In this document: positions 2-48,195 of the stretch, one piece after another
How positions within the stretch are numbered: position 1 is the first letter of the stretch
Layout of the letters: every line of letters begins with the position of its first letter
Source of the DNA: Candidatus Doudnabacteria bacterium
GTDB lineage: Bacteria > Patescibacteriota > Doudnabacteria > UBA920
Length of the DNA stretch: 64,000 nucleotides
Assembly (NCBI GenBank): GCA_963768175.1
Contig: CAVYGQ010000001.1
Location: forward strand, 5,908-69,907
Direction of reading: 5' to 3'
The notes under the pieces: generated by a model
What the model saw: only the letters and a program-made list of their open reading frames with translations
The model's database searches: none
What the model was told of the DNA's origin: nothing
Program-made: the position numbers and the translations under genes

Positions 2-2560
2 TACAACTCCTTTGGCACGGTAGTAGGCATTAACTCTACCACCCCCACTGCCAACCTGACTGTCCAAGGGATGTCCGGCTCTACCACCCCCATCTTTGTG
101 GTGGCTTCTTCCTCTAATGCCCAATACTTAACTGTCTTGGCTAATGGGAGAGTGGGAATTGGTAGCGCCACCCCCTCAACTACTTTATCTTTACAGGGTA
201 ATTCCGGTACTAACCCTCTATATATCGCCAGCTCTACCGGTACTGCCTTGATGGTTATGCAGCAGAACGGTAACGTCGGCATCGGCACCACCTCCCCTTC
301 CCAAGTGTTAACTGTAGGCAATAACAACCAATTCACTGTTACCTCTGCGGGTAATGCCTCGGCCACCAACCTGACCATCACCAGCTTTAGTGCTGCCAAT
401 AGCTACTGTATCCACTCGGTTAACGGCCTGCTCCAGACCACGGCTTCGGACTGTGGAGCCGGAGGCGGTGGTGCCGGTGGCGGCTGGTCTACTTCTACCC
501 CCAATATCATCTACAACTCCTTTGGCACGGTAGTAGGTATTAACTCCACCACCCCCACTGCCAACCTGACGGTGCAGGGTATGTCCGGCTCTTCTACCCC
601 TATATTTGTGGTGGCTTCTTCCTCTAATGCCCAATATTTAACCGTTTTGGCTAACGGGAATGTGGGGATTGGGACGGGGAGTCCGATGGCTTTGTTACAG
701 GTCGGCGGCGGCTTGCCCACTGCGTCCAGTTCGGGCATCAACTTTGGTGGCGATGCCACGGCGGATTTGTATAGAAGTGGTGCCGGTGAGATTACCACGG
801 ACGGAGGTTTGGTTGTCGGTAGTTATGTGTCGGCTGAGAATTATATTACTACTCCTAGTGCCTATGTCGGGACATATAATGGAGCTAGCGGCGCAAATAC
901 TACTTTTGGCCTTCGCGATACAGCCTATAATTATGATTTTCAGGATTCAACCGGCAACAATCATCTTTTATGGATTCAAAACAACGGTAACGTCGGTATC
1001 GGTACGGAGAACCCGGTCGGGCAACTCCATGTTACCAATACAGATGTAAATAGTGTTTTGGTATCTCCATATATGGGAACCGCCTTCTTTTCCGGAAAGG
1101 TATATGGTAATTTTGGATTGAATATAATTGGCGCTTCCAACTTAGCTACGGGTGACCGCCCGATATTCGGCGCGGTTAGGGCGGAAGGAACACTATCATC
1201 GCCACTCGGCGTTCAGAACGGGGATGAAACGTTTAGTTTCCTTAGCGGCGCTTATGACGGATCGTCGTTGGTTTATCCGGCTATGATTGACTTTGCCGTG
1301 GATGGCGCGGTTTCCTCGGGCGTGGTGCCTACGAAGATAACTTTTATTACCGGATCAAATGCCGGGAACAGGACAGCAAGGTTGACTGTTTCCAGCGGCG
1401 GCAACGTTGGTATCGGCAGTTCCACTCCCGCCCAACTTCTGTCGGTTGCCGGCAATATGCAGTTAACCGGTGCCCTGTTTGACAGTACCAACGCTTCCGG
1501 TACCAGCGGCATGGTTTTACAGACTACCGGCACCGGCACCCAGTGGGTGGCCACATCAACCTTGGGAATTGTCAGCGGCGGTAGCGCGGCCGGCTTAACT
1601 AATGCCATCCAATACAATAACAGCGGAAACTTTGGCGGCAGCCAGATGTTCTGGCTAGATGCCACTTCCGCTTTGGGCATAAACTCCACTACCCCCAATG
1701 CCACCTTAGTTGTCCAAGGCACAACTACCCAATCGACATTACCGATTTTAGTCATAGCTTCGTCTTCCGGCGCCACTATTTTGTCTGTTTCCGGCTCGGG
1801 TCTTATTGGGGTTAATACTAGCACAGCTACTTCGATAGTTGATATTCAGGGTCTGCCGGGTTCCGCCGCGCAGTTATTTGATGTCGGTTCTTCCAGCGGC
1901 GCCTCTTATTTCCATGTTGCCGCTAATAGTTATGTCGGCATCGGTACTTCTTCTCCGGTTGCTCAATTGTCCGTTTTGGGAATTTCCGGGAATAATCCGT
2001 TGCTTAGCATTAATTCCTCTACTGGCGCCTCCTTAATGTGGATGGGCGCCAACGGCATGTTAGCGCTGGGATCATCTACTGCTACCGCAATATTGGATGT
2101 CCAAGGCTTGCCGGGTTCCGCCGCGCAGTTGTTTGATGTTGGCTCTTCCAGCGGCGCTTCTTATTTCCACGTTGCCGCTAATGGTTATGTCGGCATCGGT
2201 ACCTCCTCGCCAATCAGCCAGTTAAGTGTGAACACTACGGCAGCCTTAACTAACGATCAGGTAACCATAACTAATGTTAATAACCCGGTGACGACAGCCG
2301 GAGTCAGTAATTTACAGTTATCTTATTTTGGCGGTGCAATGGGCATAGAATCCAGCGCCGAGAGAATAGACCTAACTGCCGGTACAAGCACCGGCGGCAC
2401 CTGGAACGGTTTGCGCATTACCGGCGCGGCTACCGGCCCGCTAGCCGGGGTGGTGGAAAACAGCATCAAACTGCAAGGCCCCACTGCTTGGGCGCCGGCG
2501 GACAGTTTAACGCGATTTATATTCCTTTGGCTAACTCCGGTACCGCCACCGGCACCATAA
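2..2560 (+). CDS. Giant tandem-repeat surface/adhesin-like protein, N-terminal portion. The 5' end is truncated by the window edge and it probably continues into the 2488..8082 ORF after a 1-nt frameshift.
   Basis: Open in frame 2 from the first base, so the ATG at 71 is not a real start. About 44-aa repeats (ASSTGTxLMxxQNGNVGIGTxSPxxLxVQG) are iterated many times, and bases 1-130 repeat 510-640. Confidence 0.6.
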   Translation, partial: YNSFGTVVGINSTTPTANLTVQGMSGSTTPIFVVASSSNAQYLTVLANGRVGIGSATPSTTLSLQGNSGTNPLYIASSTGTALMVMQQNGNVGIGTTSPSQVLTVGNNNQFTVTSAGNASATNLTITSFSAANSYCIHSVNGLLQTTASDCGAGGGGAGGGWSTSTPNIIYNSFGTVVGINSTTPTANLTVQGMSGSSTPIFVVASSSNAQYLTVLANGNVGIGTGSPMALLQVGGGLPTASSSGINFGGDATADLYRSGAGEITTDGGLVVGSYVSAENYITTPSAYVGTYNGASGANTTFGLRDTAYNYDFQDSTGNNHLLWIQNNGNVGIGTENPVGQLHVTNTDVNSVLVSPYMGTAFFSGKVYGNFGLNIIGASNLATGDRPIFGAVRAEGTLSSPLGVQNGDETFSFLSGAYDGSSLVYPAMIDFAVDGAVSSGVVPTKITFITGSNAGNRTARLTVSSGGNVGIGSSTPAQLLSVAGNMQLTGALFDSTNASGTSGMVLQTTGTGTQWVATSTLGIVSGGSAAGLTNAIQYNNSGNFGGSQMFWLDATSALGINSTTPNATLVVQGTTTQSTLPILVIASSSGATILSVSGSGLIGVNTSTATSIVDIQGLPGSAAQLFDVGSSSGASYFHVAANSYVGIGTSSPVAQLSVLGISGNNPLLSINSSTGASLMWMGANGMLALGSSTATAILDVQGLPGSAAQLFDVGSSSGASYFHVAANGYVGIGTSSPISQLSVNTTAALTNDQVTITNVNNPVTTAGVSNLQLSYFGGAMGIESSAERIDLTAGTSTGGTWNGLRITGAATGPLAGVVENSIKLQGPTAWAPADSLTRFIFLWLTPVPPPAP

Positions 2561-5500
2561 TCGGCCTGAACATCAGCAGCATTACCGGCGGCTCGGCTAC
2601 CGAAACCGCCATCTCCATCGGCAGCGGCTGGGATTCCTACTTAAACATCGCCACTATCTCCACCACGACCTTAATCAACATCCAGGGCACGGCCGGCCGC
2701 GATACCTTGAACATCTCTTCCTCCACCGGCGCTTCCATGTTCTATATTACAAATGGCGCCAGGATCGGGATTAACAGCTCTACGCCCGCGGCCACCCTCT
2801 CCGTCCAGGGAGCTGCGGTCGCCAACCCCTTGCTTATTGCCAGCTCCACCGGTACCGTCTTAATGGCCATCCTGCAAAACGGCAACGTCGGCATTGGCAG
2901 TGCCAGCCCCATTACCACCTTAGCCCTAACCGGCACTGTCGGGACCAACCCCTTAGTGGTTGCCTCTTCCACCGGTACCCAGCTCCTCACAATATTACAA
3001 AACAGCAATGTCGGTATCAGCAGTGCTACACCTGTGGCGACTCTCTCGCTGCAAGGCACTTCGGGAACCAATGCCCTTTTTATTGCCAGCTCTACGGGAA
3101 CCGGCCTGATGATCATTCAGCAAAACGGCAACGTGGGGATTGGCAGTTCCAGTCCCTCTACTAGCCTGGCCATCCAGGGTGTGGCCGGTTCCAGCGACTT
3201 GTTCAACATCGCCTCTTCCAGCGGTATTTCCGTCCTGCGCATTACCGCTACTCAAAGAGTGGGCATCGGTTCCACCAGCCCCATTGCTACTTTAGCTATA
3301 CAAGGCACTTCCACCTCGCCGACTTTGGACGTTTTAGACATAGCTTCTTCCACCGGTGCTATATTATTTAACGTCCTAGCTAATGGTAAAGTTGGTATTG
3401 GGACTTCGTCTCCGGCACAAACTTTGACACTGCAGGGCACTTCGGGAACGGATTTGCTCAACATCGCTTCCTCAACTGGGGCGAGTATAATGTATATAAT
3501 GCAGAATGGCAACGTCGGCATTGGCACCACTACTCCGGCCGCCACCTTAAACGTGCTGGGTACGGGTATTTTCCAAAGCACTACTAACACTCCCACGGCT
3601 TTCCAGGTGCAAAACGCCAGCGGCACCCCCATCTTGCTGGTTGACACCACGCCGACCTTTGGCGCCACCACCACCAATTACATCGCCAATCCGGGCTTTG
3701 AAGTCAACACCTCCGGCTGGGCGGCTTCCGGCACCGGCGCCACCATTGCCCGGGTGACTACCAATAAGTATATGGGTCTGGCTTCATTAAAGATTGACAG
3801 CTACGGCTCGGGAGCCGGCCAAGGAGCCAGCACCACCGTATTTACCATGAGCCCCACTGCCGGCACCTATGTCTTGAGCTTCTACGCCCGCACCGACATC
3901 AGCTCCTCCAGCTTTAGCACTTTAATGGCCGGCTATAGCACCAGCACCCAGTTCTCCGCCTGTACCCTAAACTCCAACACGGTCTCCAACTTGGGCTGGA
4001 GACGCTATAACTGCAGCTTTACCGTAAGCGGCCCCATTACCCAAATCTTCATCGGCCAATCCGATGCCAACCCCAACCGCACCTTCTATATTGATTCCAT
4101 CCAGCTGCAGCTGGGCAGCGCGCCCACCCCTTACGCCATCGGCAACATCCAGCTCCGCGGCGTCATTACCAGCCCGGTGTCCCTGCAGTCCCTGTCTAAC
4201 TCCGTGACCGCTTTCCAAATCCAGGATCAGACCGGAGTATCCAACCTGTTCATCGCCGATACCTTAAACAACGCCATTGACATCGGCACCTCTACCGGCA
4301 CCTCCGTTTTGAACATCCAGGGGGTAGCCGGCAGCACCAACGGTTTAGTCAGTATTTCTTCCTCTACTGGCGCTTCGCTGATGTATTTGGGCGCCAATGG
4401 CAAAGTCGGCTTTGGGTCTTCCACGCCAAACGCTACAATGGTGGTTGAGGGGGCCACGAACTTGCCGACTTCGGATATCTTACGCGTCGCCTCGTCATCT
4501 AACGCGGTTTTCTTAAATGTTACCGCGGCTGGCAATGTCGGCATCGGCACCACCACGCCGGCTACGGCTTTGAGCGTAGTTGGGTCCATTACCTCTACAG
4601 TTTTAGCCGGTACCGCCAATGGCATAGTCTATGTTGACGCCACGGGAAAATTAATCAACACCGTTTCCCCGCAGAACTTGGGCGTCAACCAATGTTTAGT
4701 TTCCAATAATGGCGGTACCCCGGCTTGGACCACCTGTACTTCTATTAACAGCACGACTACTATCTGGTCTTCCTTGGCTAATCCGACTGCCGCTTTGACC
4801 GTTAACATGGGTTCTAACACTACTAACTTTACTTATGGCAACACTACCGGCTCCGGAGTCAACTTATTTACCTTTAATGACAGCGCTAACAATACCGGCA
4901 CCGGCAGCTTATTCACCTTAAGTTCCAATACTGGTTCGGCATTAAATCCTTTCCAGGTGTTAGTCTCTTCCACTACGCCGGCCTTGGTCGTAACCGCTGG
5001 CGGTTTTGCCGGTTTTGGCACAACCACCCCCACTAGTGCTTTGTATATTTTAAACAGCACGACTTCTTTGTTCTCCATTGCCAGTACCGTCGGCTCTAGC
5101 TTGTTTGATATCAGGAATATTGGCGTTACTTTTGGCGCCGCGGGTTACGCGGGCGCGTTTGTCAGCAAAAACTCCTACTTTGGCGAAGAATACAGCCAAT
5201 TTCACAGCTTGGTTTTGACCGTAACCACGGCCGGCAAGGGAGGCACCTCCCAGGTCCGCGGCCAAAGCTCAACCTTAACCGCCAATACCGCCGGCAACGG
5301 CACCATGACTTTTAACACCAACATTACCGCCACCCCCGGCGGCTGTACCGCCACTTCCACCAACGCGCTCAACGGCATAGAAACAGTCATAGCTTCTTCT
5401 ACCGTCAGCACCAGCGCGTCTTGCATGGAAACCGTGACCACCAACGCTTCGGCTACCTTGTTGTCCATGTTCAATCCCAACAACCTGCCGGTGGTGGAAA

Positions 5501-8082
5501 TTAAAGCCAGTTCCACCAGCGTTACGGCCGCGGGCGCGACCCAGCCAAATTTGGTAGGCGCGGTCTTTTTGGGAATTGGCGATACCGCGGTGGCCTCTTC
5601 CACGCCGCCGAACAACGGCATCGTTTTTACTAATTGTACAAACCTTGCCTGTACCGCGACTTCCAGCAACTGGACCGGTATGGTCATAACCGCCGGCACT
5701 GTCAATACGGTTTCCTGTCCCGCCATAACTTTGGGCAAAATGGCTTTGCTGCGCTTTGAAGTCGCGTCTACTTCCAAGGTTAACTTTTTTGCGCAAAACA
5801 ACGTGGCTAACGGTCCTTACGAAACTTTCTGCGGCAGTGTTAACGCGGCTCTGCCCAACGTCAACATGACCGTGATGATGGAAGACAGCAGCACAGGCAC
5901 AAATAAAACCATATTGGATTTGGATTACTTCCGCGCCTGGCAGGACGATACTCCGCTGAATCCCGCCAATAATCCTCCCTCTGCCTACCAGGCCGCCTCT
6001 GCCGTGCCTGACTTAGTTACTTATGCGGCTTTAAGCCAGCGCTATCCGTCGTCCGGTGATATTCCCGACGGCTCCTTAGTCAGCTGGAATACTTCCACCT
6101 CCACGCCCTCAGTTGGGCTTTCATCCGTCCCTTATGACCAGCATATTTTGGGCGTAACCGTGCCTGAAGGCTCCATGAGCATAAACGATATGTCCGGAGG
6201 CGGAGCAGAAGTGGCGATTTCCGGCCGCGCCAGTTTGCAGGTTAGTTCGGAAAACGGCGGCATAGAGCCGGGCGACTACCTAACCTCTTCCGATATCCCC
6301 GGAGTCGCCATGAAAGCCATTAAAGCCGGCTTGGTGATTGGCAGGGCGTTAACCGAGTTTGCCGCCAGCGGTACTGGCAGCGTGGCGGTCCAAATCAGCC
6401 CCACTTACTTCTTTGGCGACTTAAATTCCCTTGCGGGCATAACCCAAGGGACGGGCAACGCCTTCTCCCAAAACCTGCTGACTTCATTGCAGGGCCAGAG
6501 CCAGCAGCTTTTGGCTTCCGCTACCGGCAGTTTGTCGCAAATCTACACCGACCGCGTAGCCGCCCTGCAGGTGGTAACGCCGCAATTAGTCAGCAACAGC
6601 TTAATGGTCAACAGCATCCAATCGGCGAGTAGTTCCGACTTAAGCATTTTGCTCGGCCAGAATAACCGTTTGGCGATTTTAGCCACCGGCACGCCGCAGG
6701 CCGGCTCCGGGCAAATTGTGCTAAGCGTAAATGCTTCCGGTAATCTGGTTACCTCCGGCACATTGGTGGTCAAAAACGGCCGGAACGTTTCGCAAATGTA
6801 TCCGGTTATAGACCAAAGCCTGGAGCCGGGCGATATTGTGGCTTTGGCTACCAGCACGATGGCTTCCGGCTCGCCCATTAGCGGCTTGGTCAAGGCTTCC
6901 AGCTCCACGCCCGATGTCTTGGGTGTTATTGCCAGTGAGCCGGGCTTAGTCCTGTCGGGCAGGACCGCCAGTTCCTTGCCGGTGTCGCTAATCGGCCAGG
7001 ACATAGTTAAGGTTTCTTTGGAAAACGGTAAGATTGAACCGGGCGACTACTTAACACTGTCCGCCATTTTGCCGGGCTACGCCATGAAGGCCGTTTATTC
7101 CGGCAATGTCATTGGGCGGGCCATGGCCGCCGCGACCGGCACTCCGGCAACATCCACAACCACCCTGCTTAGTTCCATCCAGTACGGCTGGCAGAACATT
7201 AATAATACTTTTGTACTTGGTGCCAATGACGGCCAACTGGCAAACGCGACTTCCACCTTTATGGTTTTGAGCTCGGCTTCTTCCACCGCCGCCACCATGT
7301 TGGTCAATCAAATGGGCAGCGGCGGTTTGTTACAGCTCCAGCAAAACGGTGAGGACAGATTGTTAATTGCCAATGACGGCAGCGTGAATATTTTGGCCAG
7401 TACCACCCTTGCCACTTCTACCGTATTGAGCGTGAAAGATTCCACTAGCACGCTGTTTTCCATAAACGCCCGTGGCGACGCGGCAGTGGCGGGAATAATA
7501 GTAATTAAAAACGATACGTTTGCTGGAAGCATTGCTACTGATATCAACGGGGAAGCTCAAATTATGTTTAGCTACGATGTAGGCACGGGCAAGCCGGTGG
7601 TTCAGCTAACGCCGGAAGCGGAAGTTCCGGTATTTGCTCAAGTTTTATCCTGGAGCAAAGATTCCAACCAAAATTATACAGGTTTTACTATTAAAACCTT
7701 CGGTCTGTCCGGCGCGCCGGTTTCCGCCATTGTCCACTATTTGGTGGTAGGGAAAGAAGATGGCTATCAAACTCAAGGCCAGGTTTTGCAGGTTACGCAG
7801 GCTTCGTCCGTAAATCAAGCCACAAATTCCGGACAGGTTGACCTTCAACCGGATTCGGAATCTTCAACCTCTACTGCGCCAAGCGACGCCAGTGCTTCTT
7901 CTACTTTTTCAACTACCTTGGCAACTTCGTCCGATTCGTCAATTCAGACTGCTTCGCTGGCCGCGGCTCCGGCCGCACAATCCGCCGCGGCCGCTCCTTC
8001 GTCCACTGATGATACCGCCGCCTCTGCCCCGGATACCGTTGGACAATCCGCCGCGGCTGACAACGCATCGCCAACAAATTAA
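2488..8082 (+). CDS. Giant repeat protein, C-terminal portion. It has more NGNVGIG repeats, a CBM4/9-like carbohydrate-binding module (around 3640-4150), a duplicated 'ENGxIEPGDYLT...GxVIGRA' module (around 6240-6360 and 7020-7130) and a Ser/Thr/Ala-rich C-terminal tail.
   Basis: 1864-aa ORF. Frame 1 is already open from 2311, and the protein-like translation switches from frame 2 to frame 1 around 2470-2510. The NPGFE..GW..YxxS motif is typical of a CBM. Confidence 0.6.
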   Translation: MGAGGQFNAIYIPLANSGTATGTIIGLNISSITGGSATETAISIGSGWDSYLNIATISTTTLINIQGTAGRDTLNISSSTGASMFYITNGARIGINSSTPAATLSVQGAAVANPLLIASSTGTVLMAILQNGNVGIGSASPITTLALTGTVGTNPLVVASSTGTQLLTILQNSNVGISSATPVATLSLQGTSGTNALFIASSTGTGLMIIQQNGNVGIGSSSPSTSLAIQGVAGSSDLFNIASSSGISVLRITATQRVGIGSTSPIATLAIQGTSTSPTLDVLDIASSTGAILFNVLANGKVGIGTSSPAQTLTLQGTSGTDLLNIASSTGASIMYIMQNGNVGIGTTTPAATLNVLGTGIFQSTTNTPTAFQVQNASGTPILLVDTTPTFGATTTNYIANPGFEVNTSGWAASGTGATIARVTTNKYMGLASLKIDSYGSGAGQGASTTVFTMSPTAGTYVLSFYARTDISSSSFSTLMAGYSTSTQFSACTLNSNTVSNLGWRRYNCSFTVSGPITQIFIGQSDANPNRTFYIDSIQLQLGSAPTPYAIGNIQLRGVITSPVSLQSLSNSVTAFQIQDQTGVSNLFIADTLNNAIDIGTSTGTSVLNIQGVAGSTNGLVSISSSTGASLMYLGANGKVGFGSSTPNATMVVEGATNLPTSDILRVASSSNAVFLNVTAAGNVGIGTTTPATALSVVGSITSTVLAGTANGIVYVDATGKLINTVSPQNLGVNQCLVSNNGGTPAWTTCTSINSTTTIWSSLANPTAALTVNMGSNTTNFTYGNTTGSGVNLFTFNDSANNTGTGSLFTLSSNTGSALNPFQVLVSSTTPALVVTAGGFAGFGTTTPTSALYILNSTTSLFSIASTVGSSLFDIRNIGVTFGAAGYAGAFVSKNSYFGEEYSQFHSLVLTVTTAGKGGTSQVRGQSSTLTANTAGNGTMTFNTNITATPGGCTATSTNALNGIETVIASSTVSTSASCMETVTTNASATLLSMFNPNNLPVVEIKASSTSVTAAGATQPNLVGAVFLGIGDTAVASSTPPNNGIVFTNCTNLACTATSSNWTGMVITAGTVNTVSCPAITLGKMALLRFEVASTSKVNFFAQNNVANGPYETFCGSVNAALPNVNMTVMMEDSSTGTNKTILDLDYFRAWQDDTPLNPANNPPSAYQAASAVPDLVTYAALSQRYPSSGDIPDGSLVSWNTSTSTPSVGLSSVPYDQHILGVTVPEGSMSINDMSGGGAEVAISGRASLQVSSENGGIEPGDYLTSSDIPGVAMKAIKAGLVIGRALTEFAASGTGSVAVQISPTYFFGDLNSLAGITQGTGNAFSQNLLTSLQGQSQQLLASATGSLSQIYTDRVAALQVVTPQLVSNSLMVNSIQSASSSDLSILLGQNNRLAILATGTPQAGSGQIVLSVNASGNLVTSGTLVVKNGRNVSQMYPVIDQSLEPGDIVALATSTMASGSPISGLVKASSSTPDVLGVIASEPGLVLSGRTASSLPVSLIGQDIVKVSLENGKIEPGDYLTLSAILPGYAMKAVYSGNVIGRAMAAATGTPATSTTTLLSSIQYGWQNINNTFVLGANDGQLANATSTFMVLSSASSTAATMLVNQMGSGGLLQLQQNGEDRLLIANDGSVNILASTTLATSTVLSVKDSTSTLFSINARGDAAVAGIIVIKNDTFAGSIATDINGEAQIMFSYDVGTGKPVVQLTPEAEVPVFAQVLSWSKDSNQNYTGFTIKTFGLSGAPVSAIVHYLVVGKEDGYQTQGQVLQVTQASSVNQATNSGQVDLQPDSESSTSTAPSDASASSTFSTTLATSSDSSIQTASLAAAPAAQSAAAAPSSTDDTAASAPDTVGQSAAADNASPTN

Positions 8083-8449
8083 CCTGGTCAAAAAAATCGT
8101 CTTTTTTCCCTTGCTGGGGCGCATCAATATTTTTAAAAACAGCCCTCCAACCCGAGAGGGATCAAAACCGGCCCTCTGGTGGAAGTCTTCAAAAAGCCTT
8201 ATAATATTCCTAAACGGCCATTACGCCACCGAGGTGGTACTATAAAAGAGTTCCCAAAAATCCAACCAAGATTTTTATAAGGGATTTTTGGGATAGAGGG
8301 GCAACAACGAATTGAGCGAAAGTTTTATTCGCGACGTAGAGCGAGTGAAAGTATATGCCTCCGGCAGATACTTTCCGAGCCGAGGAGCTAATGCAGGCTT
8401 AGGCCGTTATTCTAATAAAATTTAAACGAAAACGAGTTTATTGCGGCGA

Positions 8450-8742
8450 GGTTCCGTAGCTCAATGGATACCCGCCCGACTCGCCTGACGAGGCCTCGTA
8501 GCTCAATGGATAGAGCCGCGCTCTTCTAAGGCGCTGATGTAGGTTCGATTCCTACCGAGGTCACCAGACGAGTCAGGCGGGCGGGGAGCAGTGTTCTTCT
8601 AAGGCATTGATGTTGGCTTGCCTCGCACCAATTTCCTTAGTTGTTCTTGATGTGTAATATTATTATTGCAGAAAAAAATATTCATTCAATAAGAGTTGGT
8701 TAGGGGAATTGGTGCGGGGTGAGATTCCAACCGGGACCGCCA
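8450..8742 (+). pseudogene. Degenerate tRNA-Arg(TCT)-like gene interrupted by two insertions. An IR-flanked cassette holding the intact tRNA-Arg sits in the D-region, and a ~100-nt hairpin element sits in the T-loop.
   Basis: 8450-8470 matches the tRNA 5' part at 19 of 21 positions (GGTTCCGTAGCTCAATGGATA). 8583-8615 matches the D-stem 3' strand plus a wobble-paired TCT anticodon arm. 8616-8742 gives a T-stem GTTGG/CCAAC, acceptor 3' strand CGGGACC, G and CCA. The first insert is bounded by the imperfect inverted repeat cccgcccg..gcctgacg / cgtcaggc..gggcgggg. Confidence 0.4.
8492..8566 (+). tRNA. tRNA-Arg (anticodon TCT)
   Basis: Cloverleaf readable by eye: acceptor GGCCTCG/CGAGGTC, D-arm GCTC-AATGGATA-GAGC, anticodon loop CTTCTAA, T-arm GTAGG-TTCGATT-CCTAC, discriminator A and an encoded CCA. 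Confidence 0.85.
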
Positions 8743-8935
8743 TGAATTTAAAAGTCTTTCAGGTGTATAACTTTACTTGACACTAAATAACAAAAGGGTT
8801 AAATAGAAGGGGGGAGGGGGGAAAGGAGACCTTAAGACCTAAGATTTTTTAATAACAAATTTTATTAAATAGTCTCATATTTTAGCCTGATCATGGAGTT
8901 TAAATTTTTGATTTAAAATCCTACATTGGGAGGAG

Positions 8936-9121
8936 GTGATAAATATGCAGAATTTTCACATGTATATGTGCGATGGCTGCGGCTATTCCCGCGAAAAACC
9001 CGGAATCTGTCCATATTGCCAGGCTCCATTGACGGTTTATAGCAAGGAAGACCAGGCGGAGTATCTGGTGGATATGGAAGAAGCTATGCGCACAATGAGC
9101 GAGTATAAGTGGTATGTGTGA
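8936..9121 (+). CDS. Small zinc-ribbon (rubredoxin-like CxxCG...CPxC) protein, 61 aa
   Basis: Strong RBS GGGAGGAGGTGA upstream, a TTGACA-17-TAAATA promoter near 8767-8800, and the motifs MCDGCGY...CPYCQ. Confidence 0.5.
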   Translation: MINMQNFHMYMCDGCGYSREKPGICPYCQAPLTVYSKEDQAEYLVDMEEAMRTMSEYKWYV

Positions 9122-9170
9122 ATAACAAATAATTAATAATTGATAACAGAAAACATGTTATACAGCAGTT

Positions 9171-9202
9171 AAAACCCCGCATTAAACGATGCGGGGTTTT
9201 GT
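9171..9202. terminator. Bidirectional rho-independent terminator hairpin (AAAACCCCGC-attaaacgat-GCGGGGTTTT)
   Basis: GC stem flanked by A- and T-runs, between convergent genes. Confidence 0.6.
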
Positions 9203-9215
9203 TATGGGTTATAAA

Positions 9216-10291
9216 TTATTTGTTATTAGTTTTTCCGTGGTATTTCCTATGGATTTCCCTTAACCCTTGGTCGGTAACGTGGGTATAAATTTGCGTAGTG
9301 GTTATGCTGGAGTGTCCTAGCAGGGTTTGGACTGAGCGGATGTCGGCGCCATTTTGCAAAAGATCAGTGGCAAAGCTATGGCGCAATGTATGGGGCGTGA
9401 CTTTTTTTACAATTCCGGCCAAGCGGCAATATTTTTTTATAATCCTTTGGATTTGGCGGGGAGTGAGCCCGGACTGATTTGAGATTTCGGGTTTCTGGCT
9501 TGAAGATTTAAAACCTTGGGAGGCTATTTCTTTTTCCATTCTTTTTTGTCTGGCATCGACGGATTTCTTGTCGGTCTTTTCGGGTTTATCGGAAACTTTG
9601 CCAATTGTGGAATGGCCAATAAATAAAGCTTTGCTGTTGTCCTTTCTTTTGGCCAAATACTTTTTTAAGTCCTGGGCGGCTTCGTCGCTCAAAAATACCA
9701 GGCGCAATTTGCTGCCTTTGCCACGGACGGTAAATTCCCTTCTTTCCAAATTAATGGAGTCGCGTTTGAGCCCGGCGACTTCGGAAACGCGCAAGCCGGT
9801 GGAAAAGAGCGTTTGCAAAATTGCGGCATCCCTTAAGCGGGGAAGCTCTTGTTTTTCCTGGGCGGTGGCGGCGAATAGCCGTTGCAACTCCTCTTTCCCC
9901 AAAAATTCCACTTGCCTTTGGGGATTTTTTGGCAGCTCAATTTTTTCCGGACTTAAAGTTTTTACGTCATTCTTCATCAAGTATTTTAAGAATGCCCGGA
10001 GCGCGATTAAATGGTAGTTTTGCGTAATCAGTTTAAGAGTGCCGCCCTTGTCGTTTTCCAGCCTGTTTAAATAAAGCCGGTATTTGTTTACCGTCTGTAA
10101 AGTGATATCTTTTGGATCTTTCACCCCCAAGCTTGCCGCAAAACGCAAAAATTTAATTAAGTACCTGTAGTAAGCCGCTACAGTGTTAGGGCTTTGATTT
10201 TTTGCAATCTCGGAATACTCCAAAAAGTCGTTAACATAGGTCTGTAGGGGAGTAAGCTGAACCGGGCTTTTTTTAGGTTGATTTTCCATGT
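9216..10291 (-). CDS. xerD: Tyrosine site-specific recombinase/integrase (XerC/XerD family) with an internal K/S-rich insertion
   Basis: N-terminal SAM-like core-binding region, and C-terminal R...HTLRHSFAT...LLGHSSITTTQIYTHV catalytic motifs. Start placed at MENQPKK, because the upstream ORF extension is non-coding repeat DNA. Confidence 0.85.
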
Positions 10292-10486
10292 TTTTAAGAC
10301 CGATATTGCGCGATGTTGAAAATGTTGCGCAATATTGGTGCAATATGCGACATTTGTAATGTAGCATATTGTTACATTGCGCGACATGATAGTTATCCAC
10401 AATACCCACAGCGGTTATTACGACAATGACAATTATCCCCAAAGATAAATGCGTTACGCGACGCGTGACTATCAGGTAACCCTTTT

Positions 10487-10571
10487 GGCGTCATTCCGAG
10501 CGTAAAAGTAAACAATTCGCGGGGAATCTGTCTTTTTGAGATCCTTCACCCTTCGGGTTCAGGATGACGCC
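10487..10571. repeat. MITE-like element, family GGCGTCATYCTGA...TCAGGATGACGCC (copy 1)
   Basis: Terminal inverted repeat ggcgtcattccgag...tcaggatgacgcc, with the internal GATCCTTC/AGAGATYC core shared with the other copies. Confidence 0.7.
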
Positions 10572-10610
10572 ATAATTTAAGTTATGGCGGGTTTTTGCTA
10601 AGATTAACAC

Positions 10611-11489
10611 ATGATCTTAGTTATCTCATCTAAAAAAGTTTACGCTGCGAAAAGGCTGGCATGGGAAGCAGGCATTAGGAATCAAGAATTGCGGATTATG
10701 GATATGCAGGATTTGATTACCTGTAATTTTCAGATTGATCCAAACAAGTTTGATGCCCTGTACATCCGCGATCCTTATTTAAAAGACAGTCCAAAATACA
10801 CTCCGCAAATCGTCAAACTTGCAAAAAAATTTAAAGCCGCGGGCAAAAAGGTTGTTGATTCCGCGATTGCCGACGGGGAACTCGGCCAAGGCAAATGGGC
10901 GGATTATCAGAGGCTTCAAAAAGCCGGCTTGCCAATTCCAAAGACCGGTTTATTGTCTGACTACCCACTACCCACTATTCACTACCCACTAATTCTCAAA
11001 TGGACCTACGGCTTTAAGGCAAAAAATGTTTTTCTGATAAAAAACCAGCAACAGCTAAAAAATATCCTGCCCCTGCATCTCAAAAAAGAATGGCTGGTTC
11101 AGGAATTTATTAAAGCGGATTATGAATATAAAGTTATTACCGTCGGATACAAAGCATTGCCGGTGGTGTTGAGGTTTTCCACCAGAGGCGGATCCGCCTC
11201 TGGTGGAAAGATTAAAGACAACGGTTTTAGGACGGATTTCAAATCCGCATGCAGCGTGCCCATTTATGGGCGATCCAGACAGCCGATGAATCGGCACGCT
11301 ACCATTGTTAAATTTGCCGAAAGGGCATCGAAAATCTTAAACCGCGAACTGGCCAAAGTTGACATTTTGGAAGCCAAAGGCAAATTCTATATTCTGGAAG
11401 TTAACCGCTTCCCCGGCCTTAAGAGTTTTGAACAATTGACAGGCTATAATGTCTTTAAGGATTTTTTTAAATATCTTGTTTTAAAATGA
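10611..11489 (+). CDS. ATP-grasp family protein (RimK-like ligase)
   Basis: EWLVQEFI...YEYKVITVG ATP-grasp core. Carries the in-frame palindrome insert at 11178-11208 encoding GGSASGG. Confidence 0.65.
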   Translation: MILVISSKKVYAAKRLAWEAGIRNQELRIMDMQDLITCNFQIDPNKFDALYIRDPYLKDSPKYTPQIVKLAKKFKAAGKKVVDSAIADGELGQGKWADYQRLQKAGLPIPKTGLLSDYPLPTIHYPLILKWTYGFKAKNVFLIKNQQQLKNILPLHLKKEWLVQEFIKADYEYKVITVGYKALPVVLRFSTRGGSASGGKIKDNGFRTDFKSACSVPIYGRSRQPMNRHATIVKFAERASKILNRELAKVDILEAKGKFYILEVNRFPGLKSFEQLTGYNVFKDFFKYLVLK

Positions 11490-47898: not shown

Positions 47899-48195
47899 GT
47901 GCAAGAAAAATTATATTACGTTTACATATTAGCCAACCACAAAAACGGGACTTTGTATACCGGATTTGCAAGCAACCTTGTGCAAAGGACATTTACCCAT
48001 AAAAACGATATTGTTAAAGGTTTTACGCAGAAATATCAAGTTCATCGGCTGATGCATTATGAAGTTTTTGAAGACCGGGACGAAGCCCTAAAACGCGAAA
48101 AACAGCTTAAAAAATGGCATAGAAAATGGAAACTGGAGCTTATTGAAGAAACGAATCCCGATTGGAAAGATCTTTACGATAAAATTGCAGGTTAA
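47899..48195 (+). CDS. GIY-YIG nuclease family protein (UPF0213/YhbQ-like)
   Basis: YYVYILANHKNGTLYTGFASNLVQRTFTH GIY-YIG motif. Confidence 0.7.
   Translation: MQEKLYYVYILANHKNGTLYTGFASNLVQRTFTHKNDIVKGFTQKYQVHRLMHYEVFEDRDEALKREKQLKKWHRKWKLELIEETNPDWKDLYDKIAG

Follow-up and report, generated by a model that had tools for sequence, protein, structure and literature searches.

A 64,000-nucleotide stretch of a Candidatus Doudnabacteria contig (CAVYGQ010000001.1, positions 5,908–69,907; hereafter the window) holds, at positions 8450–8742, one tRNA-Arg(TCT) sequence nested inside another. Most probably the locus is a resident tRNA-Arg(UCU) gene that was split by a mobile, promoter-less cassette carrying a tRNA of its own and was functionally replaced by that cargo ("disrupt-and-replace"). 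The nesting of an intact tRNA within a degenerate outer copy had been pointed out in an initial annotation of the sequence and is borne out by the similarity of the flanks and by complementary arms, both recovered with a repeat finder. A scar of serial integrations had also been proposed there; the split resident gene and the successive insertions seen in related loci agree with that proposal, but the agent is not the tyrosine recombinase encoded nearby.

Architecture of the locus and its empty site

ARAGORN predicts three tRNAs in the window, with a single one in the region of interest, a tRNA-Arg(tct) at 8492–8566 that also matches the Rfam tRNA model (66.8 bits, E = 1e-13). Recovery of the inner tRNA alone by search tools had been named as grounds for doubting the nest; on the native sequence ARAGORN with intron-tolerant settings indeed returned nothing beyond the inner tRNA-Arg, but the flanking similarity is real. 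It comprises the direct repeats D3 (8447–8470 and 8489–8512, 88% over 24 nt) and D1 (8586–8629 and 8513–8556, 73% over 44 nt), accompanied by the inverted repeats I14 (8475–8489 with 8572–8586) and I5 (8621–8639 with 8701–8719, the T-loop hairpin). With 8471–8585 and about 8619–8722 taken out in silico, the remaining sequence is called as a tRNA-Arg(tct) of 75 nt that has an acceptor stem of 7 bp (GGTTCCG/CGGGACC), a discriminator G and CCA, in agreement with the acceptor 3′ strand, discriminator and CCA first read up to position 8742; ARAGORN accepts this spliced outer tRNA only with a non-canonical T-loop. The segments of the locus are as follows.

8450..8470, + strand: 5′ segment of the outer tRNA-Arg(UCU), GGTTCCG TA GCTC AATGGATA, with the acceptor 5′ strand, U8/A9, the D-stem 5′ strand and the D-loop to A21; placed here by the initial annotation and by D3, and matching, at 21/21 positions, the start of the intact gene in four relatives (L130, L131, L137 and L138)
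8471..8491, + strand: cassette left arm, CCCGCCCGACTCGCCTGACGA; pairs with 8567–8585; unique in the window
8492..8566, + strand: inner tRNA-Arg(UCU), the cargo and predicted working gene (ARAGORN, Rfam)
8567..8585, + strand: cassette right arm, GACGAGTCAGGCGGGCGGG
8586..8616, + strand: middle segment of the outer tRNA-Arg, GAGC A GTGTT CTTCTAA GGCAT TGAT GTTGG, with the D-stem 3′ strand, the anticodon arm (UCU), the variable region and the T-stem 5′ strand; identical at 30/31 positions to the intact gene of the four relatives, and supported by D1
8617..8722, + strand: second insert, a cargo-less 106-nt hairpin in the outer T-loop replacing nt 54–56 (I5; a long helix in the predicted fold)
8723..8742, + strand: 3′ segment of the outer tRNA-Arg, GATT (T-loop), CCAAC (T-stem 3′ strand), CGGGACC (acceptor 3′ strand), G and CCA; identical at 19/20 positions to the intact gene of the four relatives, with discriminator G where they have A

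Two boundaries thereby shift from those first assigned: the outer anticodon arm is present, at 8591–8607 and not 8583–8615, and the T-arm is split, by an insert that occupies 8617–8722 and not 8624–8716.

The cassette (8471–8585, 115 bp) lies exactly between A21 and G22 of the outer D-loop and consists of its arms and one tRNA, with neither an open reading frame (ORF) nor space for a promoter. Its GC-rich left arm (21 nt) is complementary to the right arm (19 nt), an 8-bp perfect terminal inverted repeat lying within these 19–21-nt complementary arms, and occurs once in the window against an expectation of zero by chance. In sequence and predicted fold the pairing of the arms sets in at the outermost bases of the insert, and the RNA of 8450–8742 folds into nested helices (−124 kcal/mol, z = −6.3). 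A contig from a second public assembly (Logan L134) is 100% identical to window positions 8562–11205; it starts within the inner tRNA, and thus confirms at 100% the cassette's right arm, the T-loop hairpin and the 3′ part of the outer copy.

Contigs of relatives were fetched for several orthologues of the window recombinase, a Xer-type protein, from Doudnabacteria and other Patescibacteria. The nested arrangement recurs among related genomes, as the initial annotation had suggested looking for, and the empty site was also found: an un-nested 75-nt tRNA-Arg(TCT) (GGTTCCGTAGCTCAATGGATAGAGCAGTGCTCTTCTAAGGCATTGATGTTGGTTCGATTCCAACCGGGACCACCA; GGTTCCG...CGGGACCACCA) is identical in L130, L131, L137 and L138, whose Xer proteins share 87%, 84%, 78% and 78% identity with that of the window, and the upstream flank in L130 matches the window up to the first base of the tRNA. 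Relative to this gene, the window outer copy has gained the 115-bp cassette, has T-loop nt 54–56 replaced by the 106-nt hairpin and carries two substitutions, C30 to T (position 8594) and A73 to G (position 8739). Between filled and empty sites, with GGATA to the left of the cassette and GAGC to its right, zero target bases are duplicated or lost, and this comparison of alleles shows an insertion that is both seamless and polymorphic among relatives. Since the 75 nt are without a single change among the four relatives and several have accumulated in the window, the outer copy is shown by the same comparison to be the ancestral resident gene, now under relaxed selection; its two substitutions and disrupted T-loop show, at the level of sequence, a gene in decay.

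The inner copy represents another allele (GGCCTCG..., GAGCCGCGCT..., T-stem GTAGG), set apart from the outer one by about 12 differences. It differs from the inner copy of L002 in two compensatory base-pair changes only, which is the pattern expected of a working tRNA. Elsewhere, a T-loop TCCGATT, with C instead of the near-universal U at position 55, occurs in tRNA-Arg(TCT) as the inner copies of L050 and L070 and as the sole copy of L140.

A cassette family and its hairpin relatives

A scan of one genome per species for half a D-arm with a full D-arm behind it returned eight loci. In five of these, all from Patescibacteria or Saccharibacteria metagenome-assembled genomes, an inner tRNA-Arg is enclosed by the same arms and sits at that same point of the D-loop. 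A metagenome scan with the 18-nt left arm returned at least 120 loci, and a census was made of arm instances in a tRNA-Arg context among the matches listed, a scope that applies to all counts of this and the following paragraph. The family comprises at least 37 non-redundant instances, in which the same 18–19 nt of left arm recur. An intact tRNA, invariably a tRNA-Arg, follows at +20 to +22 nt after the arm in 33/37, the other four being further interrupted, and the inner anticodons are CCT (14), TCT (12), TCG (3), CCG (3) and GCG (1). Insertions lie at D-loop position 21/22 (27 instances), at anticodon-loop position 35/36 (7) or behind another hairpin (3). Although the query did not include the right arm, 25 loci have one, and in 14 of these it is perfect at 19/19 positions. 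Arms, cargo and insertion points together show a widespread, tRNA-Arg-specific family whose sites, as read from these alignments, are D-loop 21/22 or anticodon-loop 35/36.

When the cassette is cut out precisely, from its first C to its last G, eight loci are left with an ARAGORN-callable outer tRNA-Arg with the same anticodon. Mean acceptor pairing is 6.25/7 for outer copies versus 6.93/7 for inner copies; many outer copies have extra hairpins, odd anticodon loops or truncations, and in 12 the right arm and the 3′ half are gone. Inner and outer anticodons are mostly equal, with exceptions in L100, L103 and L081.

Repeated rounds of insertion are shown across related loci by comparison of their alleles. 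Within the TCT lineage the inner allele of L070 is about the same as the outer allele of L002, and a triple nest is seen directly in L024. The outer copy of L050 is a chimera, with the 5′ half of one allele and the 3′ half of another, as recombination between the repeated arms of a triple nest would leave. In L071 the inner and outer bodies are identical and the acceptor stems alone differ. No ORF is shared beside the cassettes: clustering of the flanking ORFs recovered lineage synteny alone, with no common nuclease or transposase. Viral contigs gave one match to the arm, a tRNA-less hairpin resembling repetitive extragenic palindromes (REPs).

Two further loci depart from this pattern. A relic 5′ fragment of a tRNA-Arg(GCG) with two D-loop hairpins (L139, 5690–5890) lies 46 nt upstream of an intact tRNA-Arg(GCG) whose acceptor 3′ strand pairs better with the 5′ strand of the relic than with its own, which suggests a 5′-half replacement without arms. 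In L005 (7838–8000) another tRNA (GGGCCCTTAGCTCATTTGGTAGAGCGCT...) apparently begins in the anticodon region of the outer tRNA-Arg, and the locus ends there.

About fifty of the listed metagenome matches to the arm 18-mer are tRNA-less hairpins (CCCGCCCGACTCGCCTGAGCGAGAGCGATGGCGGGCAGG). The first 18 nt of the left arm are identical to the start of REP-like hairpins in and around genes for REP-associated tyrosine transposases (RAYTs) on Desulfobacterota contigs. The contigs L045, L069, L109 and L111 have an element that begins with the same 18-mer and carries a GIY-YIG ORF (Pfam). This element (2311–2686 in L045) seamlessly splits a RAYT ORF between its N and H codons (...ALIPN/HFHLLL...), and a 41-nt hairpin in the opposite orientation (2812–2852) interrupts the same ORF further on; without the two inserts, taken out in silico, the ORF fits the model for REP-associated tyrosine transposases and is 82% identical, over 100% of its length, to intact 380-aa homologues, the named matches being from Desulfobacterota. 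The set of interrupted ORFs also includes L010, L097 and L126 (Desulfobacterota-like contigs; RAYT and DnaA_C), and the 39-nt hairpin of L010 is in frame and would be translated. By these shared ends the cassette arm is a member of a wider family of seamlessly inserting REP-like hairpins, and its identity with hairpins of the Desulfobacterota hints at a common hairpin-recognizing machinery across phyla.

IS200/IS605-type elements and their palindrome-associated derivatives insert seamlessly, 3′ of a fixed tetra- or pentanucleotide; the insertion seen here is seamless, and the left flanks at the insertion points are GGATA, CTTC, GTC, GAAC and others. A GIY-YIG ORF stands directly after an interrupted tRNA-Arg T-loop in L027 only, and the window has a free-standing one at 47899–48195 (98 aa, Pfam E = 9e-17), flanked by inverted repeats that contain CCGGAAT/ATTCCGG. 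A GIY-YIG gene considered to lie inside the outer T-loop of L077 and L091 was rejected as such, being a separate element with its own inverted repeats downstream of the tRNA locus.

The hairpin in the outer T-loop of the window has arms of a second family (CCTCGCACCAATTTCC / GGAATTGGTGCGGGG; CCTCGCACC... / ...GGTGCGGGG) around an AT-rich center; immediately beyond the arms come CT[T/C]G and TG[A/C]G. Relatives of these arms occupy the same tRNA-Arg position in L024, where another tRNA-Arg is carried, and in L028; a loose regular-expression search returned mostly noise, the convincing matches being these two and perhaps L115. Judged by its arms, the window copy is a cargo-less representative of this second family, in a dead outer gene.

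Smaller hairpins are found in similar places. Pairs of the form CTCCGAC...GTCGGAG or YCCCGAC...GTCGGGR, with variable loops, lie at D-loop position 16/17 of outer or relic tRNA-Arg copies in L050, L070, L071, L076, L077, L093, L123 and L139, across five Arg isoacceptors, and similar hairpins are also intergenic (e.g., window 35295, 35436 and 57618). Just upstream of the nested tRNA, an 88-nt block (8330–8417) with a hairpin GAAAGTATATGCC/GGCAGATACTTTC (I12) is absent from L130, has a similar counterpart in L132 and looks like another small inserted hairpin element. The preceding block of ~90 nt (8243–8329), with a hairpin CCCAAAAATCC...GGATTTTTGGG, is conserved upstream of the tRNA-Arg in L130 and beside the tRNA-Arg(GCG) of L131, and may be a promoter or leader element.

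Proposed mechanism and competing explanations

With no space for a promoter in the cassette, the inner tRNA would be transcribed from the resident promoter within a chimeric precursor, from which RNase P and 3′ processing would release it and the outer halves would be discarded. An essential gene could be occupied in this way because the element brings a spare copy, and insertions would persist mainly where the cargo covers the lost function, which would explain why cargo and target are both tRNA-Arg, usually with equal anticodons. A cargo that retains the target sequence could be hit again, giving Russian-doll nests, which might in turn collapse when repeated arms and tRNA segments recombine; the cargo could be retargeted by gene conversion between the inner and the outer copy, as L071 suggests. 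In the window, the cargo-less hairpin of the other family would have landed later, in the T-loop of the already disabled outer copy. The arms would be the determinant of mobility, and an enzyme whose gene lies elsewhere would recognize them in hairpin or single-stranded form; candidates are a transposase of the RAYT/HUH type or a nuclease of the GIY-YIG type followed by copying through repair, but not the adjacent Xer. All insertions seen are in unpaired loops of the cloverleaf or of other hairpins, which suggests that the target is recognized as a folded single-stranded nucleic acid.

Several points weigh against this reading. No mobilizing enzyme was identified in the window or the cassette loci, and no RAYT was matched in either; the link to REPs and RAYTs rests on a shared 18-mer from another phylum. 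The left arm was the search key, and its apparent invariance is thus partly an effect of ascertainment; a role other than mobility might explain why the arms are so strongly conserved. The outer acceptor stems are mostly still paired, and about 8–10 of the 37 listed outer copies are intact once their inserts are removed, which fits recent insertion but also fits excision at the RNA level. For the origin of the five cargo anticodons there is inference only, gene conversion with the outer copy being suggested by L071.

Excision at the RNA level would have an unknown bacterial activity read the closing helix, so that a single transcript gives rise to the inner tRNA as well as to an outer tRNA that is re-joined or in two pieces. 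Each insert is closed by a helix that draws its flanks together, and all the sites fall in loops of the cloverleaf (16/17 and 21/22 of the D-loop, 35/36 and 37/38 of the anticodon loop, and the T-loop), similar to the positions of non-canonical archaeal introns. Exact removal restores a tRNA in the eight listed loci noted above, the outer acceptor stems are largely paired, the same kind of hairpin breaks a RAYT ORF out of frame in an ORF that is otherwise intact, and the Patescibacteria are rich in tRNA introns (PMC13011429). However, the helix begins at the junction itself, with no bulge-helix-bulge geometry and no 3-nt bulges 4 bp apart in the fold; no Rfam ribozyme was found, and the arms, at 40 nt in total, are too short to encode one. 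The window outer copy has substitutions and a non-restorable T-loop where four relatives are invariant, many outer copies are truncated or missing one half, and an intact tRNA-Arg cargo, needless if the insert were harmlessly spliced, is nearly always present. Excision is therefore considered unlikely for this locus, and the suggestion in the initial annotation of a tRNA interrupted in the manner of multi-intron archaeal tRNAs is not upheld: the junctions have no bulge-helix-bulge and no ribozyme, and the exons have changed while those of the relatives have not. There is only a slim chance that helix-closed inserts in general (arms with tRNA, the T-loop element and the YCCGAC hairpins) are removed or cut from RNA by such an activity; if they were, the Patescibacteria would make tRNA-Arg from nested or split precursors by a protein-dependent bacterial tRNA splicing or fragmentation, with a tRNA housed within a tRNA intron.

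Candidate RNA motifs were also inspected individually. Rfam matches to E = 10 in 8000–11000 include no intron family; besides the tRNA they are chance microRNA-like matches to the long hairpin. A group I intron was rejected, as there is no Rfam Intron_gpI core and the non-tRNA part of the cassette is 40 nt versus about 200 nt or more expected; so was a hammerhead-like CUGACGA in the left arm, as its A9 differs from locus to locus and helix II lacks a following GAA. A bulge-helix-bulge motif was likewise rejected after the junctions and the predicted fold had been inspected.

A purely local rearrangement, in which slippage, template switching or break repair duplicated the gene within itself and gene conversion has kept the copies alike, is also quite improbable. 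Inner and outer bodies are identical in some loci (e.g., L071 and L018), arm-less relic 5′ fragments occur in L139, L001, L006 and L008, and recombinational collapse and chimeras are evident, but in the window the inner copy is of another allele than the outer (about 12 differences) and so is no local copy, the unit is bounded by the same 19-nt arms at two different sites, in genes for five isoacceptors and across no fewer than three synteny groups, and close relatives have a clean empty site.

The initial annotation had placed a XerC/D-type integrase at 9216–10291 and likened the repeats upstream of it to recombinase arm sites; on the corresponding rival reading, islands or prophages integrated in tRNA-Arg by this recombinase would have left attachment (att) scars. 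The type is confirmed by profile models (~230 bits against XerC, XerD and archaeal XerA models; Phage_integrase and SAM-like domains), with the coding sequence corrected to 9216–10289 (start ATG at 10289), about 650 bp from the nest; further, Xer orthologues lie 0.1 to 2.5 kb from a nested tRNA-Arg(TCT) in L002, L003, L070, L103 and L123, and repeats do stand upstream of the recombinase gene. Against this, orthologues at 65–87% identity number in the thousands in Doudnabacteria and other Patescibacteria, and the order rpsO, rimK-like gene, xer, 58-aa Zn-ribbon gene and tRNA-Arg region is kept in relatives whether the tRNA is nested, intact or absent. As xer is also present where the tRNA-Arg is uninterrupted, the recombinase is, on this synteny, a neighbor and not part of the element. 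The upstream repeats (10292–10440) align with the same intergenic region of relatives, including those with an uninterrupted tRNA-Arg, as GTCGCATAAYG-type boxes and a conserved DnaA box, and the arm-site interpretation is accordingly abandoned. Neither tRNA 3′ end recurs within the 64-kb window at up to 3 mismatches, so the direct repeats that were proposed to delimit an integrated island are absent and no island was found; the insert is just 115 bp and in a D-loop, and no recombinase lies near the cassettes that occupy CCT, TCG and CCG genes. Integrase-mediated scars are thus very improbable. An assembly artefact, by chimeric joining of repeated tRNA sequence in a metagenome assembly, can be dismissed almost entirely: L134 does break within the inner tRNA, a repeat that troubles assemblers, but the part of the nest that it does contain, from the right arm through the T-loop hairpin to the outer 3′ part, is independent confirmation at 100% identity, and the same architecture and arms occur in dozens of independent assemblies from different projects.

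The surroundings of xer have features of their own. Upstream of the gene (10300–10390), boxes of the GTCGC[A/G][C/T]AA[T/C]G type, with a 14-nt palindrome at 10341–10371, look like operator sites, and part of this array is found only in the window and L131; a dif site is unlikely, as the palindromic part is missing in several relatives. The intergenic region between xer and the rimK-like gene has a perfect DnaA box (TTATCCACA) and a near-perfect one (10393–10401 and 10433–10441), conserved in five relatives, and a palindromic element (GGCGTCATTCCGAGCG...CAGGATGACGCC, 10483–10575) with similar ones at the same place in L131 and L132. The sign of the GC skew flips near 8 kb, and together with the DnaA boxes this could mark a replication origin, with the caveat that a single giant gene of unusual composition dominates the left 8 kb. 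At 71–8082 lie two ORFs of very large size (829 and 1864 aa), rich in S/T/A/G with IASSTG-like repeat units, and the GC content there is 52–58% compared with about 44% for the rest of the window.

Comparison with known systems

The cassette resembles tRNA-targeting islands and prophages in that it enters a tRNA gene, brings tRNA sequence that would preserve the function, leaves a displaced piece of the old gene as a scar and can stack in repeated events. Unlike these, the cassette has no integrase or ORF, measures 115 bp and not kilobases, lacks att direct repeats, supplies a whole tRNA instead of a 3′ segment and enters the D-loop at 21/22 or the anticodon loop at 35/36, with the result that the old gene surrounds the new one and does not lie beside an island. 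The cassette shares with REP/REPIN sequences mobilized by RAYTs and with bacterial MITEs (transposable elements of miniature size with inverted repeats) the form of short, GC-rich, imperfect palindromes that are non-coding, multi-copy and polymorphic for presence. It has the terminal inverted repeats, small size and lack of an ORF of such elements, along with many copies (one of them in the window) and empty sites, but, in contrast to MITEs derived from DDE transposons, it makes no target-site duplication. It further differs from REP/REPIN sequences and MITEs in carrying a predicted functional tRNA, in being intragenic and target-specific, in its host phylum and in that no RAYT was seen in the window or the cassette loci.

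Archaeal multi-intron and split tRNAs have interruptions in D-, anticodon and T-loops, with bulge-helix-bulge introns or, in Nanoarchaeum, GC-rich complementary leaders. The same loops are interrupted here, and a GC-rich helix closes the insert and aligns the halves; in contrast, the host is bacterial, there is no bulge-helix-bulge, the insert holds a whole tRNA, the exons are decaying and a relative has the uninterrupted gene. Rickettsia palindromic elements are palindromic mini-elements within genes that stay in the gene product and carry no cargo; the cassette is likewise a palindromic mini-element inside a gene, but with cargo. Cleave-and-rescue drives, which are synthetic and encode their own nuclease, disable an essential target while carrying a working copy, and the cassette similarly disables an essential target and brings a working copy, without a nuclease of its own. 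Group I introns have been reported in tRNA genes of the Patescibacteria, including at position 35/36 (PMC13011429). They share with the cassette the phylum, a position that some cassettes use and an interrupted gene that standard finders miss, but the cassette has no detected group I core and a non-tRNA part of just 40 nt; that survey of Patescibacteria tRNA introns has no such interruption of tRNA-Arg and no nested tRNA.

Literature searches with either arm sequence gave no match, and those on nested or interrupted tRNA genes, on REP/RAYT with tRNA and on tRNA interruptions in Patescibacteria found no description of the element. As far as these searches go, and as a search result rather than a proof of novelty, the element recurs in dozens of uncultivated Patescibacteria and is apparently undescribed. 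If the disrupt-and-replace interpretation holds, the locus shows how selfish DNA without genes or a promoter can sit in a single-copy essential gene of a tiny genome, and it offers a way in which tRNA alleles could be replaced horizontally, and Russian-doll tRNA loci could arise, in the Patescibacteria. It would also account for tRNA-like debris and assembly breaks at tRNA-Arg, and annotators should be warned that tRNA finders detect the innermost copy only. Set beside the known systems, the cassette combines two familiar kinds, palindromic non-autonomous elements and tRNA-targeting elements that restore their target, in a combination made unusual by its whole-tRNA cargo, intragenic loop target, absence of target duplication and absence of a linked enzyme.

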